A stretch of 64,000 nucleotides of DNA, taken from a bacterium. GTDB lineage: Bacteria > Electryoneota > RPQS01. The DNA lies in NCBI GenBank assembly GCA_023382385.1, contig JAHDVH010000002.1, forward strand, positions 136,219 through 200,218, written 5' to 3'. The notes under the pieces were generated by a model. It was not told where the DNA came from, made no database searches, and saw only the letters and a list, made by a program, of their open reading frames with translations. The position numbers and the translations under genes were made by a program. This document shows positions 1 to 61,800 of this stretch, in pieces (position 1 is the first letter of the stretch; each line of letters opens with the position of its first letter).

Positions 1-3000
1 GAAACGGAGTAAGCGGACCATGGACGCAGATTGGTGAGACGGCAGAGAGCACATTCGACTGGGTGGTGACTGAGCCGGTTACGTCGAATGCGCGATACCG
101 AGTGACGCTTGTCAACAAGCCGTGGGTGCAAGGCGCAGTGACATTCAACAGCAGCATAGTGGTTCCGCGACTGCACATCGTGTCGCCTGCGCAAGGCGAT
201 ACATTGGTTACGAATCGAGACATCACTTTGTCGTGGACTCGCGAGCATGTCAATGTGCCGGTAGATGTTTGGTTTGATCGCGGTTTGCCTGTAAGCGATA
301 TTGAGATCTTACGCGAAGGAGTTACGGGGGACTCGATTCACTGGACGGTAACACCTCCGCTTTCGGCCCACGCACGCTTCGTCCTGCGCACTTCGTCCGG
401 AATCTTTGTTGAAGAGGATGGCGACCGGATGTTTATCATCGCGGACCCGCTGCTTTCTGTGCTCACGCCGAACGGATCCGAGCAGTGGACCGTCGGTCAG
501 TCAGCCACAATCACATGGACTCGCGCTGCAGTGAACGATCCGGTTCGTGTAGAACTCAATCGGGACTACCCGAGCGGGAATTGGGAGAATCTGGCCTCGG
601 CCGTCGCGGGAAGCGAATTGATTTGGACTGTCAACGGGTCGGCATCCACTAATGCGCGGGTTAGAGTTACCTCGACTGTAGACGAAAACCTCAAAGACGC
701 ATCTGACGGACCGTTTACGATTATCATGCCGGAGATCGCTTTTACATCCGCATTTCCGGAAAGGGTTCCGATTGGATTCGCGCAGAGTTTGAGTTGGCAT
801 ACGGGTGATCTGACTGGAACCTTCAGTCTCTATCTTTCACGGAACGACGGTGCAAGTTACACAGAGACGATAGCTTCAGGCTTAAGCACAACACAGTTTA
901 GCTGGACGCCCTCAGGTTCAACGGCGGCACAGGCGAGACTGAAGATCCAAAGCGATGCCTTCCCGCAAGCGTATGCGGAGTCGCCGAGCTTCGTCCTTGC
1001 ACAGCCTGCCCTGACCGTGACTTCACCGCAGAGTGGGGAGACGTTTGCCTTGCGTGTTCCACTGACGATGCACTGGACGCGCACGGATCATCCGGCGGCA
1101 GTGAGAGTTGACCTGAACAGGAACTATCCGAGCGGCGCTTGGGAGACAATCGCAAGTTCCGTGAATGCCGATTCGTTCGTCTGGTCGGCAACTGGAGCCG
1201 CGACGGCCAACGCGCGCTTCCGTGTGACTTCACTCGTGAATGGAGCATGGAGTGACGTAGGCGACGGGAGCTTCGCACTTGCCGAAGCGAGCGTTTCGCT
1301 CGTATCACCAGAGTCGAGCACAGAGTTGGTGCTTGGTTCGCCGGTTCATATTGAATGGCAGCGCACGGCTTGGAGCGGAGCCGTGTCAGTGACTTTGAAC
1401 AGGACAGGTGGCGCGCAGACCGTCATCAGTGCGTCTGCTGTTCTTGACACTCTAACATGGACAGTTGGCGGAGCAGCCGCCGAGAATTCCTGGCTCGTGG
1501 TTCGTGCCCTTGCACAACCGGACTGGGCAGATAGTGTCATGCTATTGGGTCCCTATTCACCGAGCCTCGGCATTTCAGATCCGAGACAGAATGAGCGCTG
1601 CATTATCGGGGAAGCACACACAATACGCTGGACACGAAGCCACCTGCCGGAAGGAGTCGAGGTCTACTTGAATAGCGGCAATGGCTTCACTTTGCTGGGA
1701 GTTACAATTGCGGACAGCTTGAGTTTCACACCGCAAACTGAGGAAACTGAGGACGCACGTGTGTTGATTCGATCTGTAGCGCGTCCGGATGTCACGGATA
1801 CAAGCGGAGTATTCCGGCTTGTGGCTCCAAGGTTAACGCTGCTTGAAGGGACACCGCACGATTATCGCATCGGCATCGCCCGCGAGCTGTCGTGGCAGGC
1901 ACATGAGATAGTCGGTGAAGTCTCAGTTCAGTTATCGCGGGACGGAGACTCGGGACCTTGGGATGAGCTATACCGAGGCACAGGATCATCACTTGAGTGG
2001 ATTCCCGAGTTGCCCGAAACGGAAAGCGGGAGTATTCGAGTCATCAGTATCGAGGAGCCTCAATTCGCAGACACGCTCGATCAGATGATAACGCTCTATT
2101 GGCCGACGCTGGAGATTTCGAGGTCGCTCACAGCGGACACGCTATACACGGGTCAGACAGTTGATGTCCACGTAAGCGGCGCGCATATCTCAGAGCACAT
2201 CAGCGAAACCGTGAGCATTGCGCTGGAGCGCAATGGCATTCCGGAAGTGTTGGGCGAAGTTGTGGTGCCGGGAACACTATCAGTATTGCTGACGGCACCT
2301 CTGAGCGATCACGTGCTCTTCCGGGCCTTTGTGGACGGAGACGCCGACTTGAATGCGGCGACACCAGAGTTCGTGCTGCGAATGCCGACACTTCAGTGGG
2401 AGTCCGCGCCTGAGGGCGAGGTGTTTGCTGGAGACGAGGTATTGATCACATGGAACATCGAAGGATTACCATATGCCGTCGAACTCCTGCGGTATGATGT
2501 CAATGGAGAAACGGTTATTGTGCAGAACCTGACGAATGATAACTTCACGTGGACGGTGGAGGGACCAAGAGGTGAGACACAATTGATTGTCCGAGTCCCC
2601 GACGACCCGCAATGGGCGGACACGACTTCGCCTTTTACGGTGCGAGTTCCGGAACTTCTGTGGGCAACTCCAGTCGAAAGCGGCACGGATACGTCTGGTC
2701 AGAGTCTGCTTCTAAGCTGGAGTGCTTTGGACGGAGCGTCACCTGTGCAACTTGAAGCGGCATTTGACGGTGTTTGGGAAACGCTTGAAGCAACGCAGCA
2801 GGATACGAGTTATCTGTACGAACTTCCCTATCGCTCAGCTGAAACTCTACAGTTCCGAGTAACTTCACTTGTGCATTCAGGAGTCGCCGCGCTGTCACCA
2901 ATAAGGACACTCGTCGCACGTTCACTGGTTATTAATGCAGGCGGCGATGAAGTGTGGTACGTCGGAGAACAAAGGTGGATTCGCTGGTCACGCGAGCATG

Positions 3001-3782
3001 CGGAGGGTGAGGTTGAACTTGATGTAAGTTACGGAGATCGAGCAGAAGGCAGTTGGGTGGAACTTGCGACGAGTCAGTCGGACTCATTCCTCTGGACAGT
3101 TGAAGGTCCGGCAACTGAGTTTGCCGCGCTGAGAGTAAGGCTGGCAGGCGAGATTTCCGTTTTCGACACGACGGATGCTCCAATATCGATCAGATTGCCG
3201 AGCATCACAGTGATCGAACCAAACAATGGCGGCAGCTACGACATCGATCAGCAACTTCGTATTCGCTGGTCGAGCGAAGGCATTCCCGCGGGCGTGCACA
3301 TCGGCTTGTGGCGTGGCGCGCCTGTGAATGCGCTCGATACGCTTTTCCTCGCAGTGGAAAACGACGGAGAGCAGAACTGGCAGATAACAGGCCCTGAGGC
3401 GGACAGCTGCTATATTATCATCGTCTCCGAAACGGATACAAGCATTCACGACATCAGCGACGCACCGTTCCGCATCACGGGTGGCGTTAGCGCAAATCCA
3501 CGCAACGGCGAGCTGCCTACGGTGATCGCACTGGGTCAACCATACCCGAATCCGTTCAACGCGACGTTAACAGTACCTTTCGACTTGCCGCAACCAGCGC
3601 ATGTCACGATTACCGTGTTCGATGTGTTGGGACGTGAAGTCACACAACTCGTGAATGAGCTTAGGCCTGCTGGCAACTTGCGCGCGCAGTGGCAGGCGAT
3701 GCATGCGAGCAGCGGGATGTATTTTGTCCGCATGCAGGCTGCTGAATTCACAGATGTGAAGCGAGTCCAGCTAATAAAGTAA
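1..3782 (+). CDS. 5'-partial large secreted repeat protein (~10 tandem ~100-aa beta-sandwich-like modules) with a T9SS C-terminal sorting domain
   Basis: The reading frame is open from the window start to a stop at 3782. The recurring module is '..W(T/Q)R..V..PV.V.LNR.YPSG.WE.(L/I)AS.V.....W.V.G.A..NAR.RVTS'. The C-terminus 'PYPNPFNATLTVPFDL..VTITVFDVLGREV..GMYFVRMQA..KRVQLIK' is a typical Por-secretion CTD. Confidence 0.8.
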   Translation, partial: NGVSGPWTQIGETAESTFDWVVTEPVTSNARYRVTLVNKPWVQGAVTFNSSIVVPRLHIVSPAQGDTLVTNRDITLSWTREHVNVPVDVWFDRGLPVSDIEILREGVTGDSIHWTVTPPLSAHARFVLRTSSGIFVEEDGDRMFIIADPLLSVLTPNGSEQWTVGQSATITWTRAAVNDPVRVELNRDYPSGNWENLASAVAGSELIWTVNGSASTNARVRVTSTVDENLKDASDGPFTIIMPEIAFTSAFPERVPIGFAQSLSWHTGDLTGTFSLYLSRNDGASYTETIASGLSTTQFSWTPSGSTAAQARLKIQSDAFPQAYAESPSFVLAQPALTVTSPQSGETFALRVPLTMHWTRTDHPAAVRVDLNRNYPSGAWETIASSVNADSFVWSATGAATANARFRVTSLVNGAWSDVGDGSFALAEASVSLVSPESSTELVLGSPVHIEWQRTAWSGAVSVTLNRTGGAQTVISASAVLDTLTWTVGGAAAENSWLVVRALAQPDWADSVMLLGPYSPSLGISDPRQNERCIIGEAHTIRWTRSHLPEGVEVYLNSGNGFTLLGVTIADSLSFTPQTEETEDARVLIRSVARPDVTDTSGVFRLVAPRLTLLEGTPHDYRIGIARELSWQAHEIVGEVSVQLSRDGDSGPWDELYRGTGSSLEWIPELPETESGSIRVISIEEPQFADTLDQMITLYWPTLEISRSLTADTLYTGQTVDVHVSGAHISEHISETVSIALERNGIPEVLGEVVVPGTLSVLLTAPLSDHVLFRAFVDGDADLNAATPEFVLRMPTLQWESAPEGEVFAGDEVLITWNIEGLPYAVELLRYDVNGETVIVQNLTNDNFTWTVEGPRGETQLIVRVPDDPQWADTTSPFTVRVPELLWATPVESGTDTSGQSLLLSWSALDGASPVQLEAAFDGVWETLEATQQDTSYLYELPYRSAETLQFRVTSLVHSGVAALSPIRTLVARSLVINAGGDEVWYVGEQRWIRWSREHAEGEVELDVSYGDRAEGSWVELATSQSDSFLWTVEGPATEFAALRVRLAGEISVFDTTDAPISIRLPSITVIEPNNGGSYDIDQQLRIRWSSEGIPAGVHIGLWRGAPVNALDTLFLAVENDGEQNWQITGPEADSCYIIIVSETDTSIHDISDAPFRITGGVSANPRNGELPTVIALGQPYPNPFNATLTVPFDLPQPAHVTITVFDVLGREVTQLVNELRPAGNLRAQWQAMHASSGMYFVRMQAAEFTDVKRVQLIK

Positions 3783-21003: not shown

Positions 21004-24000
21004 TTAATTGCCACTGCAATCTGCAGTCACGACGTAGTAGCGATAGCCGTCGAAGCCTGCAGCGCCATCGTAGACAACCGAAGCACCGTTCAGAGCAGGC
21101 ACCGTGTCGTCGAGGATGAACTGCGGATCAAGACCGTCGTCCGGATTTCCATCGTTATTCGGGTTGGTCGAGTACCAGATCTTGTAGTTTGCATCCTGCG
21201 GGGCCGTGAAATGCAGTTGAATGAAGTTCGGGGCATTTCCGGCCGACACCACATACGCGCGGAGGTCGGTCACCGGCAGGCACGGGACCACAGTCACAGG
21301 ACAGGCCACTGTCGGCTGGCACGGAGTACCGTCATCAGACACCGTGAACGCGAACGTTCCCGTACCGCTGCCAAATGCCGTAATCAACAGCTTGTACTCA
21401 GCATTCGCGACCGAACAGAACGACAACTGCGAAGCCAGAGCCGGCGTGGTGCAGAAGTCGTCATCGTTCGCGACACACAGCAAGCTTTCGCAGGTCTCGC
21501 CGCAGAACACGCCGATTTCAGAGTCATAGATGGTCAGCGCGTCACACAGTGCTACCGTCATCGTATTGCCCGTGCCGATGATGTTGTACCAGACACCGCC
21601 GACCGTCGCACCGTACCACGTCGCACACGCGGGCAATCCGGTTTCGGCCGTATAGCCGACATTCGTACCGACATACGTCTGACCAAGCGCCGGGACTAAG
21701 ACAGCGCCGGCACAGGCATCGCTTCCTTGCAAAATCTGCGGGCAGGGATTGGCCTCACAGGTCAAGCCTGCGTCCCACAGTCCACCAAGTGCCGTGCACT
21801 CAATCTGCATCAGGTTCGCGCACGCATCACCGTTGTCATAGCAGCAGCGGCCCACCGGGCAGGGAGCGGCCTCGCAAGTTGTCGTGGATGTCCATTGACC
21901 GGAAAGAGCATTACACTCTAACTGGGTATTGGTCGCACACGCCCCGATACCGTTGTCGAGATAGCAGCAACGACCCACCGGGCAGGGGCTGGTTGCGCAG
22001 GAGGCAGCATCATTCCACTGACCACCGAGTGCGGAACATTCGGCAGCCATGTTGTCCGTACAAGCAGCTACTCCGTTAAGCAGATAGCAGCAGCGGCCCT
22101 CCGGTGCGCAATCAACATAGTTTACGCAAGGGACACTATCGCGGATGGCAAGTTCGTACGGGCCGCCCGTACCGGAGCCGTAGCCGTCCACCATGACGTA
22201 GTATTCTCGGCCAAGTTCTGAGCAGAACCACTCTACCGACCTTGTTGAACTGACAGTGCATCCTGCGGTAAACGCATCGTCATTACCGCCCACACAGGTG
22301 AAGTTCTGACAATCGCTACTACATGTAACAAGGAGTTGCGAATCGAACGTCGTGTAGGAATTACAAAGCGACACAACAATAATGTTCCCGGTTCCGACTA
22401 CCTTGTACCATTTGTCGGGAGCGGTGTTCGATCCCAGATAATCATCGCCGTTAAAATTGGACTCACAGTCAAAGTTCGGATCGTTGTCCGTGCCTCCCAC
22501 CAACGTGCCGCGGACAGTTGCCGGCACCGGCAGCAGTGGTGCTTCCGCGCAGGTATTGCCGCCGTCAATGAACAGCGGGCAGGGGCTGGCTTCGCAGGTC
22601 GTCGTGCCGTCCCAAACGCCGCCGAGGACAGAGCAGTCGTAGGCACCGTTGTTCGCACAGCTATTCCCGCCGTCATAACAGCAACGGCCGATGGCGGTGC
22701 ACGGCGAAGTGGTCAGCGTATAGGCATCGCAACCCGTCGAACGGTCCACCATGATGTAATAGGTTCCGGCTGCCAACGGCACACACGACAACGTCACGGT
22801 GTCCTGAGAGATGTTTGCAAACCGAATACAGTTAAAGCTGTCCGGCGGACAGGACGTCGAAACCACGAGACCGCGAGTCGTTGTGGTCGAGGCAATCAAC
22901 TGAATATTCCACGCACCGTTCGTCGACGTCGTCCAGCGATAGATATAATCCTCGCTGGCATCGGCGGTGCCCAAGCAGGTGTTGGCCCAGTCGTTGATTG
23001 CGCCGCACGTCGTGCCGGCATCCACAAAGGCATCGGCCTGCGCTTCATCGTAACAGTCGCGCACCTGCACGGTCACGCGAAGAGTGTCGTTGGTCCGGTC
23101 CTGATCCGTTGCCAAATCCGTGTACATCAAAAGTTCATAGTCGCCGACAGATGCCGGAGCAGTTTCGGTTCCGGCAAAGTCGTGATCTTCACTCTGATTC
23201 AAGGCGAGCACGGCCGTATTCTCCGAAACCACCGGACCGCCGTTAAAACGATACTTGACCGGAGCGGATTGCGCATTGTTTCCAATGTTGCGGAACTGAC
23301 CCACGATGTTCATCACTTGGCTCGGACTGACCCGCAGCGGACTCGGTGACACCACGCTCACGGTCCGGAAATCGTTGTTGTTGAACAACTGATAGAACCA
23401 CACCGCGCGGCCGTCCAGGTTGTTCGTGTAAGCGGAATCGGCTGCCGTGCTGCAATAGTAGTTCAGTTGGTCAAGTCCGGCGGCAGAAGTATTCTGAATA
23501 CCGATTGTCGGCGAAATTCCGTTCGCGCTCGTGCCGGAGATCTTCTGGATTTGACGATACTGCAGCTTGATCCTGCCGTCGTTCCAGAGTTGAAGCTGAT
23601 AGTCGAGCAAATCGGTGCCGTTAGTGCAGCACGTGCCGACCGAGTCCCACGTAATCGTTACGTGGTCGGCGTATTGCTGATAGACTACGCGGCCGCCATC
23701 TGAGCTGGCGCCGGTGCTGGTATTTCCGTCGTCGAAGTACGGCATAATCGCAGCGACCGTGATTCCCGATGCGGGGCAGCCGTTGGACCACGAAGTGTTG
23801 GAGGCAGAAAGGCCAAACACACCGTTGGTGGAGGCCCAACCGGATGTGTAATTGGTTCCGAAGAAGTTGAAGGTAAATCCAAACGGCACACTTGCGGACG
23901 CATCGTCCGAGCTGGAAATTGCCGTCAACTCGATCGGAGCGTTCGGCTCTTCCCATGCGTAGGTCGCGGTGTCACCGCCGAGATTGTCCACCCAGCGGTA

Positions 24001-24606
24001 GCCGTAGACGTTCGGTCCGCCCTGGGCGTCCAGCGGCGTACGACCGTCGCGCGATCCTTCGATCTCAGCCAGAAACTCGCTGGCCACCAGTTCTTCCTTT
24101 TCCGAAGGAGTAAGTTGCTCTCCGGTCTGCATCCTTGCATAGAGCGACGCATGGCGCGCTTCCGGACCGCTGCTCTGGCTGACCAATGCGATGTAAGCAG
24201 GATCGTCTTTGCCTTTCAACAACCCGCTTTGCAGCAATTCGAGCCGCTCACGGTCAGACAGGAGACTGCCGTCGTTGTGCCGCTCGAGCAGCCGCTCATA
24301 ATACGCGGGGTCGGTCGAAGCACGCTCCTGCTCTTCAGCCAAGGCCCGGAACTTGCCTTCGTCTGCGCCATTGCTGAAAGCCGGCGCGGCTTCGCCAAGC
24401 TCGGCCAGCTCGGCAACCACTGCGGCGCGCTTGGCGAGCAGTTCATCGTTGCTCACGTCTTGGATGAGCATCGCATCAATCTCAGCAAGCGCAGTGCGCG
24501 CAGCCTCAATGCGGGACATTTTTCTTGCCGACTCGGTAGCGGTCGCGAAATACGCCGCACCCAGCAGCACGCTGGACATCACAATCAAGGATAGCCACTT
24601 CTTCAT
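21004..24606 (-). CDS. giant secreted protein (paralog A): conserved ~215-aa N-proximal domain, PPC (pre-peptidase C-terminal)-like beta-sandwich domains and four ~38-aa six-Cys 'GRCCY' modules
   Basis: Signal peptide 'MKKWLSLIVMSSVLLGAAYF'. PPC-like 'YYIMVDRSTGCDAYTLTTS' and 'YYVMVDGYGSGTGGPYELAIRD'. Repeats such as 'GRCCYLDNGIGACATNTQLECNALSGQWTSTTTCEAAPCP'. Confidence 0.8.
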   Translation of the reverse strand: MKKWLSLIVMSSVLLGAAYFATATESARKMSRIEAARTALAEIDAMLIQDVSNDELLAKRAAVVAELAELGEAAPAFSNGADEGKFRALAEEQERASTDPAYYERLLERHNDGSLLSDRERLELLQSGLLKGKDDPAYIALVSQSSGPEARHASLYARMQTGEQLTPSEKEELVASEFLAEIEGSRDGRTPLDAQGGPNVYGYRWVDNLGGDTATYAWEEPNAPIELTAISSSDDASASVPFGFTFNFFGTNYTSGWASTNGVFGLSASNTSWSNGCPASGITVAAIMPYFDDGNTSTGASSDGGRVVYQQYADHVTITWDSVGTCCTNGTDLLDYQLQLWNDGRIKLQYRQIQKISGTSANGISPTIGIQNTSAAGLDQLNYYCSTAADSAYTNNLDGRAVWFYQLFNNNDFRTVSVVSPSPLRVSPSQVMNIVGQFRNIGNNAQSAPVKYRFNGGPVVSENTAVLALNQSEDHDFAGTETAPASVGDYELLMYTDLATDQDRTNDTLRVTVQVRDCYDEAQADAFVDAGTTCGAINDWANTCLGTADASEDYIYRWTTSTNGAWNIQLIASTTTTRGLVVSTSCPPDSFNCIRFANISQDTVTLSCVPLAAGTYYIMVDRSTGCDAYTLTTSPCTAIGRCCYDGGNSCANNGAYDCSVLGGVWDGTTTCEASPCPLFIDGGNTCAEAPLLPVPATVRGTLVGGTDNDPNFDCESNFNGDDYLGSNTAPDKWYKVVGTGNIIVVSLCNSYTTFDSQLLVTCSSDCQNFTCVGGNDDAFTAGCTVSSTRSVEWFCSELGREYYVMVDGYGSGTGGPYELAIRDSVPCVNYVDCAPEGRCCYLLNGVAACTDNMAAECSALGGQWNDAASCATSPCPVGRCCYLDNGIGACATNTQLECNALSGQWTSTTTCEAAPCPVGRCCYDNGDACANLMQIECTALGGLWDAGLTCEANPCPQILQGSDACAGAVLVPALGQTYVGTNVGYTAETGLPACATWYGATVGGVWYNIIGTGNTMTVALCDALTIYDSEIGVFCGETCESLLCVANDDDFCTTPALASQLSFCSVANAEYKLLITAFGSGTGTFAFTVSDDGTPCQPTVACPVTVVPCLPVTDLRAYVVSAGNAPNFIQLHFTAPQDANYKIWYSTNPNNDGNPDDGLDPQFILDDTVPALNGASVVYDGAAGFDGYRYYVVTADCSGN
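23385..24055. repeat. paralogous DNA block, copy 1 (411 bp 100% identical, ~470 bp >=99%) shared with 27566..28235
   Basis: Direct base-by-base comparison: 23624..24034 is identical to 27804..28214. The flanks fall to ~85-90% identity and then diverge. Confidence 0.9.
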
Positions 24607-24881
24607 ACAATCACCTCAGGCGGTTTGGGTTTTTGACCCGGGACGGAACAACAAAAAGGGTCTGATGGACAGACTGGAAATTTCAGGTAGCAGATCTTAG
24701 GCGGGACATTCTAATCTACAAATCTAATGCAAAACTTGCCGGATTACAAGAGCTTTGGCGGGGCCGCAAAATTTCTCTTCCCGTTTCAGGCCCGCACAAT
24801 GTTCAAGCGGCCCGCGCATAACTGCACGGGCCGCTTGAGTTTACATTTCAACGGCCATTTCTGACCGAGGTGTCGGAGAGG

Positions 24882-27800
24882 TTACTGTGTCACAGTCAGG
24901 ACAAAGTCACCCGTCTGGCCGCCGAAGCCGCTGACGCGGATGTAATACTGCGTGCCATTGGTGGGCGTCGCCACGGTTCCGATCGTGTACAAGCCGTTGA
25001 TTGGGCAAGCCGAATCGTCGATACAGAACACTTCGGTTCCGCCGCATGATCCGTCGTAGCAACCCATCTTCGTGTCGTAGTTTGTGCCGTTATCGCACAG
25101 CGACATCGTAATCGGATTCGTGGACGTTGACGTATAGACGTACCACACATCAGGCACCGTGAAGATGCAGGAGGTCGGCTCTGCGCTGAACGTCGCACCA
25201 ACGGTCGTTCCGGAAACCGGCGTGTTGTTAAACACTTGGATTGCGTTGGCACATTCGTCATTCGGTCCCGCCACAGGGCACGGATTGGCAGCGCACGTTT
25301 GGAACTCGTTCCAAACGCCACCGAGCGCGGTGCATTCCGTCTGGAAGTTATCCACACAGTTCAAACCGCCGTTGTAGCAGCAGCGGCCAGTCGGCAGCGG
25401 CGGCGGACACGGATTCACTGCGCAGCTCTGGAACGGTCCGCCCCAGGTGCCGCCGAGTTCGGCGCAATCAGCCTGAGTCAGGTCGTCGCAGTTGTTGTTG
25501 TTGTTGTAGCAGCAACGGCCAACCGGTTCAGTGAACGGCGTGCAACCGGCCGTCACGACGAAGTAACGGTAGTTGTCGAAGCCCGGCGAAGCCTGATAAA
25601 CCACCGGACCAGCCGTGACGCCCAACAGGACGGTTTCAATCACGAAGTTGGGATCAGATCCGTCGTCCGGATTTCCGTCGTTGTTCGGGTTGTTCGAGTA
25701 CCAGATGGTGTAGTCTTCATCCTGCGGAGCCGTGAAATACAGCTTGTAGTTGTTCGGCAGGTTGCCGGCGGATTCCACCAGAATCGTCAGGTCGGTCACC
25801 GGATCGCACGGAGCTTCCTGACACGGACCGAAGTCGTAGATTGTCACGTTGTAGACACCACTGTTGCCGCTGGAGTAGTGACCGGCACGGATGTAATATG
25901 TGCCCGGGTTGAACAGACCGGCAACCATCGAACCGAATCCGGCAACCGGACGGAACAACGGATCGAGCCACGGAATCAGGTCGAGATCGGGGTTGCATCC
26001 CCAGTCATCGTTGCAATAGAGCGCCGTGCCGCAACAGGCATTGCTGACCGACAGATGCGGGTCGCAGAACGTGCTGTTGTCACCGAGGATCGCAATCCTG
26101 CGGCACTCGGTCAGCGTGAAGTAGTAGAACTGATCCGGGCCGGTGGAGTTCGGGAAGCCCGGACAATCATCCGCGCAAGCCAGTCCAACACAGGTCGGCG
26201 TCGCTGACGGGTTGCCGGCGGCGGCAGAGGCGCTGCCCATCGGCGGCACGACCATCAAGGTCGCCGTCGCGCAGTCGTCGTTGGTCGGCGGCGGCGGCGG
26301 GCACGGGCTGCCTGCGCAGGTCAGACCCTGCGTCCAGTTGCCACCCAGGGCGGTACATTCGGTCAACGTGTTGTCAATACAGCTTGAGTTGTTGTCATAG
26401 CAGCAGCGTCCCTGCGGCTCGCCGGCCGGCGTGCAGGTCAGCGTCAGCTTATAAAGCGACGGCGTCGGCAGACCAGTAAAGTTCCCATACGAACCGAACG
26501 CGACATAGCTTCCCGGTGCGAGCTGCAGCGCCGAAACGGACTGCGGTCCGGCTGCGCAGCTGGTAATGAAGGCGTTCGTGATGAAGAATGCCGAAGCGCA
26601 AGGATCGTGATCCACAATACCGAAGAGCAGGTTATCGAAGGACGACTGAGCCGTCAAGGTCACATCGCTGAACTCGGTAATCGTGAACAGGAACCAGTCC
26701 GTGTCACGGTAGCCGGTCGCATCACAGGTAAACGTCTGGGCACAGACCGTCTGACCGCACGCGATAGCGCCATAGAGCGGAGTCGCGAGGTTGCAACCGC
26801 CGTTGATGTCGCTCGTACCATTGGTGGCGCAGTAGTTCGGGAAGTCATCGGGTTCAATGACGTCATTTCCACCGCACGTCAGCGCGCAGAGATTCACGCA
26901 CGGCTCCGCCGCGCAGGACGTGCCGGCAGTCCAGACTCCGTTCAAGGCTGAGCAAGCCGCCGGAGAGTTGTCTGCGCATGCGGCACCATTGTTGTAGCAG
27001 CAGCGGCCGATTTCCGGAGTCGAGATGGACAGCGTGTACAGACCACTGCTTCCGCCGTAACCGTCTACCACGAAGTAGTACGTGTTGCCGGCAACAAGGT
27101 TAAGTCCCAGCAGCTGCGAAACAAATGGACTGGCATAGTTAGGTGCCGTGCAAGCGTCGTCGTTGCAGGCAAACGGAGTTCCCGGAGTTACCGCGTTCTC
27201 GTAAACATACATCTTGGTGTCATAGGCCGTCTGGCCTCCGCACAGCGTCGCATCGACCACCTGATTCGCACCCGGAGTATAGGCATACACCACATCCGGC
27301 GAGGTCGAACCGGTGAAGGGACAAACTTCGTCGTAGTTGTTCGTGAAGCCGACCGTCGTGCCGTTAGCCGAGTAAGGCAGCGAGGGGATGACAAAAGCAT
27401 TGCAGACGAGATCGCCAGCCACTGCTGTCGGGCACGGCGTTGCACAGGTGATATCAGCGGTAAATGTCCCGCCGAGTGCGGCACAATCAGTGATAAAGAC
27501 ACCGTCTACACAATTCGGTGCGCACGGGTTGGGGCCGTAGCAGCAGCGACCAGGAGTTGCTCCTCCCAAATAGAACCACACGGCGCGGCCGTCGAGGTTG
27601 TTCGTATAGGCCGTATCACCAGCCGTGTTACAATAGTAGTTCAGCTGGTCAAGTCCGGCGACAGAAGTATTCTGAATCCCGATCGTCGGCGAACTGCCGT
27701 TGGAACTCGTGCCGGTGATTCTCTGGATTTGACGATACTGCAGCTTGATCTTGCCGTTGTTCCAGATTTGAAGCTGATAGTCGAGCAAGTCGGTGCCGTT

Positions 27801-28661
27801 GGTGCAGCACGTGCCGACCGAGTCCCACGTAATCGTTACGTGGTCGGCGTATTGCTGATAGACTACGCGGCCGCCATCTGAGCTGGCGCCGGTGCTGGTA
27901 TTTCCGTCGTCGAAGTACGGCATAATCGCAGCGACCGTGATTCCCGATGCGGGGCAGCCGTTGGACCACGAAGTGTTGGAGGCAGAAAGGCCAAACACAC
28001 CGTTGGTGGAGGCCCAACCGGATGTGTAATTGGTTCCGAAGAAGTTGAAGGTAAATCCAAACGGCACACTTGCGGACGCATCGTCCGAGCTGGAAATTGC
28101 CGTCAACTCGATCGGAGCGTTCGGCTCTTCCCATGCGTAGGTCGCGGTGTCACCGCCGAGATTGTCCACCCAGCGGTAGCCGTAGACGTTCGGGCCGCCC
28201 TGGGCGTCCAGCGGGTTGCTTTCACGGCCGTTGGGGAACAGCATCGCTTCGAGGCGCTCGAACTCCGCCTTCTCAGTCGGCGTCAGTTGATAACCATCAT
28301 TCAGACGGTCGAGCAACGCGTGATACTGCACCTTTTCGGGCGCCACACCCAGCTCTTCCGCAGTTGCGGGAGCGACGTAGCCGGCCGGAGCTTCAGCAGA
28401 AACCGAAGGTCCGTCCATGCGCTGAACCTGCGCCGGAGCCTTGACCTCATTCATGCTGCTCAAAGATTGAATCTTTGCGTCAATTTCGTCAAAGCGCCCT
28501 TGCTGGGCGAGTTCTCGCTTGGCCTGAGCCAGTGATCTCTGTGCCTGCGGACTCAAACGCTTCGCGCTGTCGCTTTGGGTCGCGTAAGAATAGAACGCGA
28601 GCGAGCCACAACACAATAGCACGGCACACACATACCATAGCCATTTCTTGTTCATCTTCAC
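24882..28661 (-). CDS. giant secreted protein (paralog B) with the same architecture: at least six GRCCY six-Cys modules plus PPC-like domains
   Basis: Signal peptide 'MKMNKKWLWYVCAVLLCCGSLAF'. The N-proximal domain is ~95% identical to paralog A. 'GRCCYDNNSSCIDNTLTECTALGGNWTQGLTCAGSPCP' and related modules; C-terminal PPC-like 'YYIRVSGFGGQTGDFVLTVTQ'. Confidence 0.8.
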   Translation of the reverse strand: MKMNKKWLWYVCAVLLCCGSLAFYSYATQSDSAKRLSPQAQRSLAQAKRELAQQGRFDEIDAKIQSLSSMNEVKAPAQVQRMDGPSVSAEAPAGYVAPATAEELGVAPEKVQYHALLDRLNDGYQLTPTEKAEFERLEAMLFPNGRESNPLDAQGGPNVYGYRWVDNLGGDTATYAWEEPNAPIELTAISSSDDASASVPFGFTFNFFGTNYTSGWASTNGVFGLSASNTSWSNGCPASGITVAAIMPYFDDGNTSTGASSDGGRVVYQQYADHVTITWDSVGTCCTNGTDLLDYQLQIWNNGKIKLQYRQIQRITGTSSNGSSPTIGIQNTSVAGLDQLNYYCNTAGDTAYTNNLDGRAVWFYLGGATPGRCCYGPNPCAPNCVDGVFITDCAALGGTFTADITCATPCPTAVAGDLVCNAFVIPSLPYSANGTTVGFTNNYDEVCPFTGSTSPDVVYAYTPGANQVVDATLCGGQTAYDTKMYVYENAVTPGTPFACNDDACTAPNYASPFVSQLLGLNLVAGNTYYFVVDGYGGSSGLYTLSISTPEIGRCCYNNGAACADNSPAACSALNGVWTAGTSCAAEPCVNLCALTCGGNDVIEPDDFPNYCATNGTSDINGGCNLATPLYGAIACGQTVCAQTFTCDATGYRDTDWFLFTITEFSDVTLTAQSSFDNLLFGIVDHDPCASAFFITNAFITSCAAGPQSVSALQLAPGSYVAFGSYGNFTGLPTPSLYKLTLTCTPAGEPQGRCCYDNNSSCIDNTLTECTALGGNWTQGLTCAGSPCPPPPPTNDDCATATLMVVPPMGSASAAAGNPSATPTCVGLACADDCPGFPNSTGPDQFYYFTLTECRRIAILGDNSTFCDPHLSVSNACCGTALYCNDDWGCNPDLDLIPWLDPLFRPVAGFGSMVAGLFNPGTYYIRAGHYSSGNSGVYNVTIYDFGPCQEAPCDPVTDLTILVESAGNLPNNYKLYFTAPQDEDYTIWYSNNPNNDGNPDDGSDPNFVIETVLLGVTAGPVVYQASPGFDNYRYFVVTAGCTPFTEPVGRCCYNNNNNCDDLTQADCAELGGTWGGPFQSCAVNPCPPPLPTGRCCYNGGLNCVDNFQTECTALGGVWNEFQTCAANPCPVAGPNDECANAIQVFNNTPVSGTTVGATFSAEPTSCIFTVPDVWYVYTSTSTNPITMSLCDNGTNYDTKMGCYDGSCGGTEVFCIDDSACPINGLYTIGTVATPTNGTQYYIRVSGFGGQTGDFVLTVTQ
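27566..28235. repeat. paralogous DNA block, copy 2 (partner of 23385..24055)
   Basis: See copy 1. Identical spurious antisense ORFs (23621..23956 and 27649..28134) confirm the identity. Confidence 0.9.
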
Positions 28662-28739: not shown

Positions 28740-28960
28740 CAGTACCCTTTACAATATCAAATATAATTGCCAGCAAAATAGGATGTCAACAGGAGATTGG
28801 TTGAAATGACACAATTCTCTCTTTTGCATCTACTATTACAAACTCTTAAAATTCAATCAGATAAATTGAAAGTCATGTTGATTTAATTCTCGGTAAAAAT
28901 CTTAACTTTCGCTATTCTATCTATTTATTATACTTGACCCATTCATTCAACAATCTGCGT
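28740..28960. promoter_or_regulatory. ~220-bp AT-rich (~30% GC) non-coding island upstream of paralog B
   Basis: Strong compositional contrast with the ~60% GC surroundings. It lies between the start of the 24882..28661 gene and the terminus of the signalling cassette. Confidence 0.5.
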
Positions 28961-44759: not shown

Positions 44760-46817
44760 ATGAAGCGAATTGCGGTATTGTTGTTGATGCTGACCTTGTT
44801 TGTTGCGGTCGCCTTGGCCAAACAGAAGTCCAATACGGGCGTTGAAGAGCCGTACTACGAGTACGTGCAGAATCAAGCTCTGGTGGGGTTCAGGCAGGAG
44901 GCAACGCAAGCGAAGATTCAGGAAATCGTGTCTCGCGCCGGCGGAACGATTGAACAGTACTCAGACTTGCTTGATTTCTACCTGATCGAAGTTGCCGACG
45001 TGAAGTCTGCGGTTCAGTTCTTCCGTTCGCAAAGTGAGGTGTTGTGGGCAAACTACAATTACATCGCCCGCGCACATTGGGTGCCGAACGATCAGTTTTA
45101 CTCGTTTCAGTGGCACTATCCGTTGATCGGGATGGAGCAGGCCTGGGACATTTCGCGCGGCAATCCGAACGTAGTGGTCGCCGTGCTGGACCAGGGATAC
45201 CAGTTTGATCATGAGGACTGGACGGGAATTCAGACAACCGGCCCGTACGATTTCATCGGCAACGACAACAACCCGTCAGAACCGAATCTGGAAGACTCAC
45301 ACGGGATGCATGTCGGCGGGACTATCTTTGCGCGCACGAACAACACGACGGGAGTTGCAGGCATCGCGCCGCTTTGCACGCTGATGCCGATCCGCGTGTT
45401 GGATAATGAAGGATCCGGTTCGCTGGCGGCGATTGCCAACGGATTTGCATGGGCTGCACAGCAGGGCGCAGATGTGCTGAACGCGTCGCTGGGATTCAGC
45501 ATTCAGAACAACCAGCCGCCGCAGGACCCGGGACAGCCGCTGACCGGTGCTATTCAGCAGTGCGCCAACGCGAATGTGATCATGGCTGTTTCCTCGGGCA
45601 ACGATAACGCTGATTACGTTTCGTATCCTGCGGCTTACCCCGCCTGCATCGCGGTCGGCGCCACAGCCTATAACAACGCGATCGCGCCCTATTCCAACAG
45701 GGGCACGGCGTTGGACGTCACAGCGCCCGGCGGAAACACCGGCGAGGATTTGAATCAGGATGGTTACATTGACGGCGTGCTCTCTACCGTGCGTGCGGCC
45801 TCGCAAGGCGGCGATTACTACACGTTCTGGCAAGGCACATCGATGGCGTCACCGCATGTTGCAGGATTGGCGGCGTTGATTTTGGCAAACGGCTGTCCGC
45901 CGGATCAAGTGCGCAATGCGATCGAATCCACGTGTGTTGACCTCGGCGCACCCGGCTGGGACGTTGTATTCGGTTACGGACGCATCAACGCGCATGCTGC
46001 GTTGCAATACAACTGTCAGGGCGGCGGCGGTGAAACGACGCTCTTCAGTGGACCGATGGACAGCGCCCAAGAAGGCTGGACGGTGGAAGAGGACGGCGCC
46101 GATGGCGTCGGCTGGCGATTCCTGAATTCGGGCAATCCCGACTGCGGTAATCAGCCGCATAGCGGACAGAATGGGCTGTGGCACGACGACGAGCAAGGAG
46201 TCGGCATGCAGGACGATTGGCTGTTCACTCCGCAAATCGCAATTCCCGCAAACGCAACGCAGGTCACTCTCAGTTTCTGGCAGCGCAATTGCTACGTGCC
46301 GGGCTACTATGTTCTGCACGCGCTGTATTATTCGACGAACGGTCAGCAATTCACGCAGGTGGCCGAGTTCAACGCAAACGTTCCGGCGTGGGAGCAGATC
46401 AATGTGAACGCGACATCGCTGGCCGGAAACAACGTGTATTTCGCATGGCGTTATCGCGGCGATTACGCAACCGAGTGGTTTCTGGACGACGTAGTGGTCA
46501 CGGCGCAAATCGGCACGGGCGTGTCGCGCGATGCGGATATCACGATTCCCGAACAGTTTACGCTGGGTAATCCGTATCCGAATCCGTTCAACAACATGGT
46601 GCAAATTCCGTTTGAGCTTGCGACTCCGCAGGAGATCACGCTTGCCGTCTATAACGTGCTCGGTCAGCGCGTCGCCACGCTCGTGAATCACGAGAAGCTT
46701 GAGGCCGGGTCGCATCGCATGACTTGGAATGGTGAAAGCGCGGCGAGCGGTCTATTCCTCGTGCAGCTGCAAAGTGGAAGCAAAGTCGCAACGCAGAAGA
46801 TTCTGCTGGTGAAGTAG
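44760..46817 (+). CDS. subtilisin-like serine peptidase (S8) with MAM-like domain and T9SS C-terminal sorting domain
   Basis: Signal peptide. Triad context 'VVAVLDQGY', 'DSHGMHVGGT', 'GTSMASPHVAGLAAL'. C-terminal 'NPYPNPFNNMVQIPFEL..LAVYNVLGQRV..GLFLVQL..KILLVK'. Confidence 0.9.
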   Translation: MKRIAVLLLMLTLFVAVALAKQKSNTGVEEPYYEYVQNQALVGFRQEATQAKIQEIVSRAGGTIEQYSDLLDFYLIEVADVKSAVQFFRSQSEVLWANYNYIARAHWVPNDQFYSFQWHYPLIGMEQAWDISRGNPNVVVAVLDQGYQFDHEDWTGIQTTGPYDFIGNDNNPSEPNLEDSHGMHVGGTIFARTNNTTGVAGIAPLCTLMPIRVLDNEGSGSLAAIANGFAWAAQQGADVLNASLGFSIQNNQPPQDPGQPLTGAIQQCANANVIMAVSSGNDNADYVSYPAAYPACIAVGATAYNNAIAPYSNRGTALDVTAPGGNTGEDLNQDGYIDGVLSTVRAASQGGDYYTFWQGTSMASPHVAGLAALILANGCPPDQVRNAIESTCVDLGAPGWDVVFGYGRINAHAALQYNCQGGGGETTLFSGPMDSAQEGWTVEEDGADGVGWRFLNSGNPDCGNQPHSGQNGLWHDDEQGVGMQDDWLFTPQIAIPANATQVTLSFWQRNCYVPGYYVLHALYYSTNGQQFTQVAEFNANVPAWEQINVNATSLAGNNVYFAWRYRGDYATEWFLDDVVVTAQIGTGVSRDADITIPEQFTLGNPYPNPFNNMVQIPFELATPQEITLAVYNVLGQRVATLVNHEKLEAGSHRMTWNGESAASGLFLVQLQSGSKVATQKILLVK

Positions 46818-57809: not shown

Positions 57810-58868
57810 TCACTTCAGCTTGATGGATAAGCTGACTCGGTGCGTGGTGCCCAGGTCGCGCGCATAGTAGGCGTAATCGGCGGTCACGCGCCACAGAGCG
57901 ATTCCCGCACCGGCGGACCATTCGTCGTGCCACAGTCCACCGCGCAGAAACAGCACATTTTCGAACGCATACTCGATTCCCGTGTGACGGCGGCGCTCGT
58001 AGCGCTTTTCCGTTTCATAAGCCAGCGTCAGGCGGCTGTTGCGGCCCGGCATTTTCTGTTCGAGCGAAATTGAGCTGTAGATATTTCGCGGCACAGCATC
58101 CTTCACTCCTTCACCCCAATCCACTTCTGTCCGCGTCGCGTCCTTGACAACGATACCGTAACTAAGCCGTGCCTTCCACGCTTCGTAAACGATCTCATCC
58201 ATCGGGAAACGCACCTGCGCGCCAGCGTCCACGCCGATTCCCGTGCCGGAAGCCGTACCCAGTTTTTGATTGATGAGCTTGAGATTGACGCCGATCGGCA
58301 CTTCGACGGGCATGGTGAAGTACGACCAGCCCCAGTCAATATTAAACTGATTGTATTTGGCGAACGTAAAGAAAAGAGCGGATTCGCTGTCCGAAAACAG
58401 TCCGCGCGGCGCGGCACCCGTTGCCAGCAGATACTCCTGCACCGAGTTGACGTAAATCGTATCGCCGTTCACAATGACGTAACGCAAGGACGGCGGGCGC
58501 GAGAGAATGTCGGCCACAACTTGATCGTAATTGGGATGCTGTTCAATATCCGGCACGCCCAACCGCACATAATTCACGGCAAAGACCGAACCCGTCACGG
58601 GCAGCGTGATGCCTGTGGACGAGAAGTTCGCCAATCCATCCCACAAATCCGCGTACATTCCGGTAGCCTGAATGCCGGAAACAAAGCCCATTCCCGCGGG
58701 GTTCCAATAAAAGCTCGACCCGTCGTAGGTATGCGAGGCCATCGCTCCGCCCATGGCAATTCCGCGCGCGCCTACACCCAGTTCGAGAAACTCTCCGGCG
58801 TATTTCGCGGCAATTGCAGGAAGCGATAGAAGCAGCAATAGTGTGATGCTGACAAAGAATCGTTTCAT
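57810..58868 (-). CDS. porV: PorV/PorQ-like FadL-type outer-membrane beta-barrel (T9SS shuttle protein)
   Basis: Signal peptide. The N-terminal 'AGEFLELGVGARGIAMGGAMAS...YWNPAGM' resembles the PorV family N-terminus. Sits immediately downstream of the porU-like gene with an ATGA overlap. Confidence 0.65.
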   Translation of the reverse strand: MKRFFVSITLLLLLSLPAIAAKYAGEFLELGVGARGIAMGGAMASHTYDGSSFYWNPAGMGFVSGIQATGMYADLWDGLANFSSTGITLPVTGSVFAVNYVRLGVPDIEQHPNYDQVVADILSRPPSLRYVIVNGDTIYVNSVQEYLLATGAAPRGLFSDSESALFFTFAKYNQFNIDWGWSYFTMPVEVPIGVNLKLINQKLGTASGTGIGVDAGAQVRFPMDEIVYEAWKARLSYGIVVKDATRTEVDWGEGVKDAVPRNIYSSISLEQKMPGRNSRLTLAYETEKRYERRRHTGIEYAFENVLFLRGGLWHDEWSAGAGIALWRVTADYAYYARDLGTTHRVSLSIKLK

Positions 58869-61800
58869 TTGCGCACCTTTGCCAGCTTGACGATGGTCTC
58901 GATCTCTTCCTTGCCTTGCTTGGCGATGATCTTCGCGAAGTAGACACCGTTTGCCACTTCCTCGCCCTTGTCGTCGCGGCCGTCCCATTGCAGCGTCCGG
59001 TAGTTGACCGTCGCGCGTTCAATTTCGCGCAATGTGCGGATATGTCGTCCGGACACGGTGTAGATCTTGGCTTCCGTGAATTGATCCGTGACTCCCGTCA
59101 ACACATAAGCAATGGTTGTGTTTTGCGCAAACGGGTTGGGATAGTTAATCGCCCATTCAAAACCGAAGTCCCGCCGCACGTCAAACTGCGCGTCGTAGGT
59201 CGACGTATTGCCGTGATTGTCTGTGGCGATCACCCGCAGCACATGCGTTCCGGGTTCAAGGTCGGGTTCGATCATCGCACTCAGCGTGTTCGCGGTCCAC
59301 GACTCGTCGTTCCATGTGATCAAACTTGGTGAAATTGTATCACCGTCGAGAATCAAATGAAATGCCGTGTCGTTTCGCATCACGCCAGCCGGATCACGGA
59401 AGGTCGTAAAGATCTGTGGACGGCTGGGAACAATGGCTCCCTGCGTGTAGCGCAGGCCGCCGATACTGACTTCGATGGTCGGTCCCTGTGCGTCAAAGAC
59501 GCGAAACAGAGCCAACTCTCCAAGCGTGGCAACTTCCCCTGACACGCGCAGGTGCCACGTCACCAATGTGTCAAGCGAAGGATTTCCCGGATTCAGTATG
59601 CGCGTCGAGTCGGTTGGAATTCGCGTGACCGTCGTATTGCGCGCGCGCACCCACTGTTTGAGCTTCGGGTCTCGCGCATATATCGCATAGTTTGCCGACG
59701 GAACCTGACTGCGCAGCGTGTCGCGGCCATCAAGCGATATGGTCACCATCGCGCGGAAACTGTCGGACAGCGAACCGAGCGAATCGTCGAACAACGCCGA
59801 AAAGACGCCGTGGGTGCTTTGCGTGAACGGCCTGCGCAGACCCTTACTCGAGAGTTCCGCCTGCTGAGCTTGTGTTAGCAGCACGGGCTGCGAATAACCT
59901 ATGGCTGCGCTGTCCCGCGGCAGAATTCCCGGGAAAACGCGCACTTCGAGCGTATCATTGCCGGTCACGGACCAGTATTTGTGCGGCCCGACGTTTAACG
60001 GTCTGGTCAGGAAGGTTCCCAGCTGCCGCGTGGCCGGATAGTAGCTCGGCATGTTGATTTCGAACGTGCGCGAGTTGTTGCCTTCGCGGGTTTCGCGAAT
60101 CAGATTGTCCGGATCGATGGTGATGTTGACGTTCCAGAGTCCGGGACGGAATTCCGTGGGAATCCACGCTTCGCGCTCATATTCACCGAACGACAGGTTG
60201 GGCAGCAGATGATTCACCGTAAACGAGTCGACGCGCACGGTGATGGTGTTCCCGCCGGACGTGTAGGTTGAATCACGCGTCGCGGTCAAACGAATCGTGA
60301 CATTGTCCAACTGCGCGGTGCTGCCCGTGCGCTGTACGGAAAACGGCTGATAATAGTAAGGCCGGCGGCCTCCGCGCTGTGCGGGCGACGCCGAAATCAC
60401 GAACGAGAGATTAAAATCGGGAGAGCGTTCCAGCGGCAGACTGAAATAATCTGATTCGAACTCCGTGCCGCCGACAGGCGTCACAAAGAACTTCACACGA
60501 TAGGTCGCGCCTTCAAAGTCATACGGGCCGATGTCTCTCACAGTTGTGTATACGCTCGGCGCGGTCTCCACCATACTCATCGTGTCCAGTCTGACTGGCC
60601 CCTGCGCCGGAGTGTAGAGTCCACGGAATCTCACGCTCTGAATTGCGTCCAGATGCAGGATAAGCGACTGGACACGGAACGGTTCACCGCTGAACGCGAC
60701 CGAATCCGGAACGGCTTCGATATCGAGAAACTGCACGGTGGAGAGACTATCGGCAAGATAAATTGGGAATCTGCCGATGGCGTTGCGCCTGAGCGCAGGA
60801 TTAGTCACATAGACCACCACATTGCCACGCGGAGTGACAAAACGATTCAGCGGTACGGCATCCGATGTACAGATTTGAGTCGTGTAGAACTGCGGGTCTA
60901 TCTGATTCTGATTGAAGGCCGGACTAAACGTGGTCACCAGCACTGGTGAGCCGAAGTTCGACGGCCGGCGCCGGTCGCCGTTGTAGGGCAGCACATAGGC
61001 GTAAGTCACGGTGGACGAATTCTGCTGCCACGGCAGGGTCATGATAACACGCAGGGAGTCCGGATTTCCCAGGCTGTCCCGCGATCTGACGATGTTGGAT
61101 TCAGCAAAAATGCGCGGCTCGAACTCTTCCTGAGGAATCTGCAGTTTTACACCCGGGTCACCGAGCAGATTCATCATCATCATCATCGAGTAATTCGAAC
61201 TCCAGCCGAGCGGAGTACTGCTCGCGCTCCACCAGCGCGCTTTGTTCAGCGCGGCGGCTTCGCCCATCGTGTAGCCCGGCTGCTGGAGGAAGAAGTCGTA
61301 AAGCCTGCGCTGCATGGATTGCCCGGCGATAGCCCATCCGACTCCTGAAGAACTGTAGAATCCAATCGCGCCGACAATGTCGTTGTTGTTATTGCGCGCA
61401 AACAGGAAGGCTTCGCCGAGTACCGAAGCCTGGCTGCGGTCATCGAACGCGCCGACATAGCAGGTGAAGTTCGTGATAAAGGGGAACGACTCGCGGTTGT
61501 TCAACAGGCGCACACCGCCGACGTTAATCAGCGAACTTCCCGACCACACACCACCGCCGCCGTGTCCGTTGTAATTTGCTGCCACACAACCGTCGCGCAA
61601 GGCGTCCCGCAGCGCAATCGGCCCCTGTCCGGCGGGAATGCTGTCGAGATACACGCGGGTCACATTCACCGTGGTGTTTTCCACCATGGCCTTCACCGCA
61701 GGTTCGGAAAACGCGGCGACGAAATCGAGCGGAGGAGGACCGGAGTCGTAGTAGTCCGCAACCATCAGCACGTTGCTCGGGGTGCGGTTCTCAAAGTCCG

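Follow-up and report, generated by a model that had tools for sequence, protein, structure and literature searches.

A probable gene conversion tract within the single domain-coding block shared by two tandem genes for predicted secreted proteins

The tandem gene pair

The window is a 64-kb stretch of bacterial DNA (contig JAHDVH010000002.1, assembly GCA_023382385.1), and all coordinates are positions in this window. It carries two tandem genes on the minus strand—gene 1 (W1) and gene 2 (W2)—which share an island of nearly identical sequence, most probably a tract of gene conversion. A response-regulator/HDOD pair lies on one side of these genes and the phoU-pstBACS operon on the other. The open reading frame list and its translation place W1 at 21004..24606, encoding 1200 aa (GenBank protein MCL4305237.1). 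W2 occupies 24882..28655 and encodes 1257 aa (GenBank protein MCL4305238.1) when read from the ATG at 28655; the start in the open reading frame list is the GTG at 28661. A promoter-like site for gene 2 is found at 28789–28760 with 11 of 12 matches. The homology blocks, tracts and cassettes described below lie on the minus strand as well.

W1 features a signal peptide, a helical leader, a 215-aa N-terminal domain (aa 191–405) and a CARDB-like region. The rest of the protein consists of PPC-like modules alternating with four Cys-rich linkers of ~41 aa—the GRCCY linkers—and of an Fn3-like module at the end. In W2, the signal peptide is followed by the 215-aa domain at aa 148–362, and this directly by a GRCCY linker and PPC-like modules, with five linkers in total. 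The leaders upstream of the domain are helical in both proteins and weakly similar. The linker follows the pattern 'GRCCY..C..C..LGG.W..C..PCP' and occurs at aa 640, 837, 878, and 919 of W1 and at aa 369, 550, 749, 1046, and 1090 of W2. It has no Pfam model and separates the PPC-like modules in W1, W2, and all relatives. Apart from a weak PPC match, W1 and W2 have no counterpart among the Pfam families at E ≤ 0.01 or among the NCBIfam families at the usual thresholds. As judged by their sequences, W1 and W2 are predicted to be large secreted, adhesin-like proteins.

The identity island

The BLASTN comparison of the window against itself yields, for the island, a single ungapped alignment of 645 bp, 23392–24036 versus 27570–28214, with 29 mismatches (95.5% identity). 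This block encodes exactly one 215-aa domain, 'PLDAQGGPNVYGYRW...GRAVWFY', in both proteins. The extent of the gene 1 block (23392..24036, codons 191–405) is given by the self-match, the codon table, and a four-way alignment with sharp borders; that of the gene 2 block (27570..28214) by the self-match, the codon table, and a scan of offsets, in which an offset of 4178 stands out as a single sharp maximum. The island is the 5′ part of the block in the sense of the genes, in frame and ungapped. It features an exact match of 392 bp (23624–24015 = 27802–28193), then a sole mismatch at 24016 (partner base 28194), and then 20 identical bases up to 24036/28214. Hence, 23624..24036 and 27802..28214 differ at 1 of 413 bp; this part of the block, domain nt 1–413, is called tract A. 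The remaining 232 bp, 23392..23623 with the partner 27570–27801, are called tract B and contain the other 28 mismatches (87.9% identity). A mismatch-free gap of 392 bp was reached in none of 100,000 permutations of the block mismatches, and analytic approximations for the clustering give ~3–5e-11.

Outside the block, the similarity ends. On the high-coordinate side, identity drops abruptly to ~51% in a gapped alignment; below 23392, DNA identity is ~45%, and W1 and W2 carry different domains. The DNA homology of the two genes at the island is one domain-coding block of 645 bp with sharp in-frame borders and not a peak on a homologous background.

An earlier note on this DNA had paired 23624..24034 with 27804..28214 as 411 bp of complete identity. 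The implied offset of 4180 gives 18.5% identity, and the pairing falls; the island itself is real, with the exact run shortened to 392 bp. The four mismatches that the note counted over ~470 bp are borne out by 4 mismatches in 456 bp at 23581–24036 (99.1%). Flanks of ~85% identity are found on the low-coordinate side (3′ in the sense of the genes) and not on the other, and the protein-level similarity claimed beyond the flank gives way to the different domains below 23392. The picture of diverged tandem paralogs with an island thus keeps its tandem genes and its island and loses the homologous background. The self-comparison that was proposed as a check returned the one ungapped alignment given above. 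Apart from it, the comparison shows just one repeat in the 64 kb, 21015–21285 versus 25541–25811 at 72%, which is older; the Fn3-like module that it codes for ('PC.PVTDL...YYVVTA.C') sits at the C-terminus of W1 but inside W2.

Comparison with orthologs

Relatives were found via an exhaustive representative search with a cluster look-up, followed by contig look-ups of syntenic loci. A domain search of genome contigs gave a best match of 41% and no close relative; a domain search of metagenome contigs gave nothing with a single protein and, with an alignment, ≤43% identity over the full domain. A word-indexed protein search, run with the domain and with the gene 1 cassette, missed R1 and S2, although these 86–95% identical relatives belong to the collection searched. 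The S strains (loci L022–L028) are 98.6% identical to the window across 14.5 kb, including all of gene 2. Strain R (L003) and the T/U strains (L029–L034) are ~87–94% identical to it. As ortholog proxies, R1 of L003 was taken for W1 and S2 of L022 for W2.

The two parts of the block follow different topologies. In tract B, W1 and W2 differ at 28 sites, W1 and R1 at 22, and W2 and S2 at 7; the pairs W1–S2, W2–R1, and S2–R1 differ at 25, 41, and 40 sites. In tract A, the difference between W1 and W2 is a single site, compared with 56 for W1–R1, 22 for W2–S2, 23 for W1–S2, 57 for W2–R1, and 64 for S2–R1. Quartet-informative sites in tract B support the orthology grouping (W1,R1)|(W2,S2) 19 times, the paralog grouping (W1,W2)|(R1,S2) never, and the third grouping once. 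In tract A (positions 22–413), the respective counts are 0, 5, and 0. Such a switch of the quartet topology at the tract border is a signature of interlocus gene conversion. The alignment of the four sequences has 116 polymorphic sites, 62 of which form a concordant run; this was matched in 0 of 100,000 permutations. The mismatch at 24016 is a retained paralog-specific site—in the variable-site table, W1 and R1 carry A, W2 and S2 carry C—and shows where the last event stopped on its 5′ side.

For this locus, ortholog divergence is unusually low in the final 76 bp of the block (23392–23467, domain nt 570–645), with W1 and R1 differing at 1 site and W1 and W2 at 12. Outgroup polarisation with the sequences N2, J1, and E1 was dropped, as these are too diverged (~30–40% at the nucleotide level) to be reliable.

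Within the tract, the shared sequence is a mosaic. S2 and R1 differ at 18 sites along its edges (positions 22–80 and 325–413), and at every one of them it has the S2, that is, gene-2, state. In tract B, W1 has this state at 17 of the 40 sites where S2 and R1 differ. By this contrast, W1 carries gene-2-type sequence at the tract edges. In the tract centre (positions 81–324), 28 sites are S2-like, 11 are R1-like, 5 are neither, and 5 are unique to the window. All 22 differences between W2 and S2 in the gene 2 tract fall in these centre positions, corresponding to 9% there versus 2.2% gene-wide. To account for the mosaic, conversion must have run in opposite directions in two or more events, or a third allele that was not sampled must be involved. 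The synonymous distance (dS) between W1 and R1 peaks in the tract, with 0.50 versus 0.19–0.36 in neighbouring segments, which is consistent with a partial replacement of gene-1 sequence, though a hypervariable patch contributes much of this dS. The patch at 23748–23815 (domain nt 222–289) encodes the loop 'GLSASNTSWSNGCPASGITVAAIM' and differs from R1 at 25 of 68 nt and from S2 at 8.

Haplotypes, cassettes, and modules

The close relatives fall into four haplotype combinations at this locus. The window haplotype, W, has what is called an a-type domain in both gene 1 and gene 2. Haplotype S has an a-type domain in gene 2 and a b-type domain, at 40% aa identity, in gene 1. Haplotype R has an a-type domain in gene 1 and, in gene 2, no domain but a 'PLDQGG' stub only. 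Haplotype T/U has a b-type domain in gene 1 and no domain in gene 2. Among the relatives found, an a-type domain in both genes occurs in the window genome only. The four combinations imply that cassettes were exchanged between strains at the phoU-adjacent locus (window 21004–28661; L003, L022–L034).

The allele-specific cassettes measure ~1.3 kb in each gene. In gene 1, the 5′ cassette extends over ~23031..24337 (W1 nt ~270–1576), as judged by the W1–S1 identity profile, BLASTN of the loci, the translations of S1, T1, and U1, and BLASTP of the domain. It is common to W1 and the distant strain R only; the S strains have the b-type cassette in its place. The cassette of gene 2, with the domain in it, spans 27016..28354 by BLASTN of the loci and is missing from the R, T, and U strains. 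Gene 2 of these strains encodes 1192 aa, with the 'PLDQGG' stub fused to a PPC-like module. R2 (L003:6148–9726) and T2 (L029:10001–13579) lack the 215-aa domain and the first linker, in what looks like a deletion or replacement junction. The 645-bp block recurs with unchanged borders in R1 and S2, which are 84% identical to each other in it. The block therefore predates these strains, whereas the identity island is a younger event nested in it.

The PPC-like modules vary between the strains as well. They are swapped block-wise in orthologs that are otherwise 90–100% identical, at ~22057–22581 and ~21241–21756 (W1 nt ~2026–2550 and ~2851–3366). The swapped blocks have 52–68% identity to R1 and 55–65% to S1 (W1 nt 2117–2476), and one GRCCY linker is present or absent among orthologs. 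The block-wise replacement indicates a shuffling of modules between orthologs. More distant relatives have three tandem paralogs (JGI 3300009868) or two (GCA_054403255.1) at the same site (L004:1747–14290 and L005:299–7253). In them, the domain types are spread differently over the leader types: N2, for instance, combines a gene-2-type leader with an a-type domain at 71–72% identity.

Origin of the identity island

The island is interpreted as an interlocus gene conversion tract between the tandem paralogs, with a probability of about 0.8. Three of the four sequence-based criteria for gene conversion are found in this pair: identity raised compared with the adjoining homology, homogenised silent sites, and phylogenetic incongruence. 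Recent interlocus conversion or concerted evolution had been proposed in the earlier note and stands on the latter two; the comparison with related genomes that the note had suggested places the grouping of W1 with W2 in the island only. Several points weigh against this interpretation. The window haplotype is known from one genome only, each gene is represented by a single ortholog proxy, and the direction of conversion appears ambiguous with a shared sequence that is gene-2-like at the edges and mixed in the centre. The possibility of an assembly artefact, discussed below, adds to them.

At third-codon positions, W1 and W2 differ at 1 of 137 in the tract versus 17 of 78 elsewhere in the block (Fisher p = 1.2e-7), and the Nei–Gojobori dS is 0.02 in the tract versus 0.40 in the adjoining 232 bp. 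The one or two differences within the 413–414-bp tract are synonymous. Since the synonymous sites are identical too, selection at the protein level fails to explain the island. The alternative that the N-terminal half of the domain is under strong purifying selection, which keeps the copies identical with no transfer of sequence, was rejected on these silent-site data even though no part of the protein family is more conserved than the domain; with R1 and S2 departing from the window sequence at 56 and 22 tract sites—including 36.5 synonymous differences to R1—its probability is close to nil. If the whole 645-bp domain had been copied from one gene into the other in a single recent step, with a subsequent fast divergence of its 3′ part, this would account for block borders that coincide with the domain borders, for the non-homologous flanks, and for a gene 2 that has no such domain in the R, T, and U strains. 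Such a copy-in is nevertheless improbable: the block and its borders recur in S2 and R1 and predate these strains, tract B follows orthology at 19:0:1, and the 'PLDQGG' stub in R2 points to a loss of the domain rather than its primary absence. Moreover, the 60-fold step in divergence within one block, from 0.24% in 413 bp to 12% in 232 bp, would itself need a second, nested event.

An artefact of assembly or polishing, in which reads of one paralog correct the other or strains are merged into a chimeric consensus, is unlikely but deserves consideration for a haplotype from a single genome. The exact repeat exceeds the length of short reads, and related strains with different cassettes occur in several public samples, making a mixed-strain sample conceivable. 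However, the locus lies inside a contig of 2,907,566 bp, in which the assembler spanned both copies, and copies diverged by 5–14% would seldom cross-map. The shared sequence also matches none of the sampled strains, and the tract ends at a retained paralog-specific site with its reading frame kept. The surface-type proteins, the hypervariable patch, and the variation of cassettes between strains could suggest programmed diversification by a diversity-generating retroelement or by a silent-cassette system of antigenic variation. The former was rejected because the mismatches lack any specificity or bias for adenine, with 12 types of substitution, and no reverse-transcriptase or recombinase Pfam family turns up among the genes called in the 10 kb to each side of gene 1. 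Both copies are full-length open reading frames with signal peptides instead of promoterless cassettes, and the 64-kb window contains no copy of the 215-aa domain beyond W1 and W2. Programmed diversification of either kind is very improbable.

Gene conversion between the paralogs most likely proceeded as follows. RecA-type non-reciprocal homologous recombination would act within the only DNA homology that the tandem same-strand genes share, with a break or gap being repaired from the paralog 4.2 kb away as a template, as the pattern suggests. The last event would have homogenised ~392–413 bp at the 5′ end of the block. Its limits would be the 5′ end of the homology and site 24016 on one side—which puts the tract's 5′ edge ~20 bp within the available homology, counted from its 5′ end—and a point between domain positions 396 and 414 on the other. 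The 232 bp 3′ of the tract retain the older paralog divergence. The difference between the edges and the centre of the shared sequence suggests that conversion took place more than once and in both directions. It presumably began after recombination between strains had assembled the window haplotype, as only this haplotype, among the relatives found, holds two a-type copies.

The domain family and the genomic neighbourhood

The 215-aa domain belongs to a family of which 2,588 representative proteins match at E ≤ 0.001 in the exhaustive representative search and for which no Pfam model exists. A profile of 24 members matches residues 36–191 of PDB 8gl6 chain D, labelled RemA, at E = 9.1e-17. 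According to the accompanying paper, RemZ, a substrate of the T9SS (type IX secretion system), is a homolog of the gliding adhesin and mobile lectin RemA (PMC10994853). The resolved part of RemZ in 8gl6 is the C-terminal domain only (PMC10994853). The AlphaFold model of the domain is an all-β sandwich with a predicted local distance difference test score of 87. Foldseek finds no PDB match at E ≤ 0.001, and the model has no convincing neighbour among the solved structures. Nearly invariant columns across distant homologs are GGP..GY, DD, TNG, and WDD.

The window encodes other large secreted proteins at 63–3782, 44760–46817, and 58865–63970. Two of these carry T9SS C-terminal sorting domains, one of them being an S8 peptidase. 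In addition, a C25 (gingipain-type) peptidase of 1701 aa is encoded in the window. Rfam lists no RNA family in it. At 84% identity, DapA matches a protein from a metagenome-assembled genome that bears the label Calditrichaeota. The literature gave no result for the assembly accession.

Implications

The mechanism is textbook, and the instance is new. The polymorphism of cassettes, the shuffling of modules, and the unannotated domain family are the more interesting by-product, though still within expectation for surface-protein loci. Within an uncultured lineage, the island is a clean case of segmental gene conversion that is comparatively dated, and it illustrates that one shared domain-coding block can serve as the sole recombination substrate between otherwise unrelated modular surface-protein genes. 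The domain it lies in points to an uncharacterised family that is distantly related to the N-terminus of RemA/RemZ. In practical terms, assemblies from short reads will break at the exact repeat of 392 bp, which will also make the mapping of reads and the calling of variants confusing at this locus.

A wider and tentative idea, held to be possible yet doubtful, is that the phoU-adjacent locus serves Calditrichota-like bacteria as a dedicated hotspot at which a family of modular surface proteins diversifies. N-terminal cassettes—a-type, b-type, or none—and PPC-like modules may be reshuffled between strains and between tandem paralogs, and two cassettes of the same type meeting in one genome may start mutual conversion. 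If this holds, the island would be one moment in a continuing mix-and-match, by which adhesion is tuned or phages or predators are evaded, and not a one-off accident.

Comparison with known systems

Diversity-generating retroelements feature pairs of template and variable repeats, and the gene pair resembles them in its two nearly identical repeats, its surface-protein genes, and its clustered differences. In contrast to them, the differences here are not restricted to adenines, no reverse transcriptase lies nearby, and the 645-bp repeat is coding in both copies.

RemA and RemZ, T9SS gliding adhesins of Flavobacterium johnsoniae, share a homologous N-terminal domain with W1 and W2 and are likewise large and modular with a signal peptide. 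The genome studied here also encodes proteins with T9SS C-terminal sorting domains. W1 and W2 themselves have none, neither Por_Secre_tail nor another such domain, as judged by Pfam even at E ≤ 10 and by NCBIfam; therefore, they are not filed as members of the RemA family despite the common N-terminal domain. Their GRCCY linkers and PPC-like modules are unrelated to RemA/RemZ, their role as adhesins is putative, and the organism looks Calditrichota-like and not like a member of the Bacteroidota.

Antigenic variation by gene conversion from silent cassettes is known from pilE/pilS in Neisseria and vlsE in Borrelia, and the gene pair resembles these systems in outcome only. It shares with them a segmental, apparently non-reciprocal recombination that alters part of a surface-protein gene and results in a mosaic. 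It differs from them in being made up of two complete genes with no array of silent partial cassettes in the 64-kb window searched. It also features one tract only, with no dedicated initiating element found and no sign that it switches at high frequency.

Among bacterial paralogs, tufA/tufB in Salmonella and ribosomal RNA operons are examples of ectopic gene conversion and concerted evolution. Compared with these, the homology of W1 and W2 is a single 645-bp block in otherwise non-alignable genes and is homogenised only in part. The genes affected are fast-evolving surface-protein genes and not conserved housekeeping genes, and the two-copy state is polymorphic among strains. Ectopic gene conversion among prokaryotic paralogs has been surveyed and is well documented (PMC6053082). 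The pair agrees with such conversion in its apparent non-reciprocal transfer within one genome, in its homogenised silent sites, in its sharp tract borders, and in a tract where the paralogs are closer to each other than either is to its ortholog.

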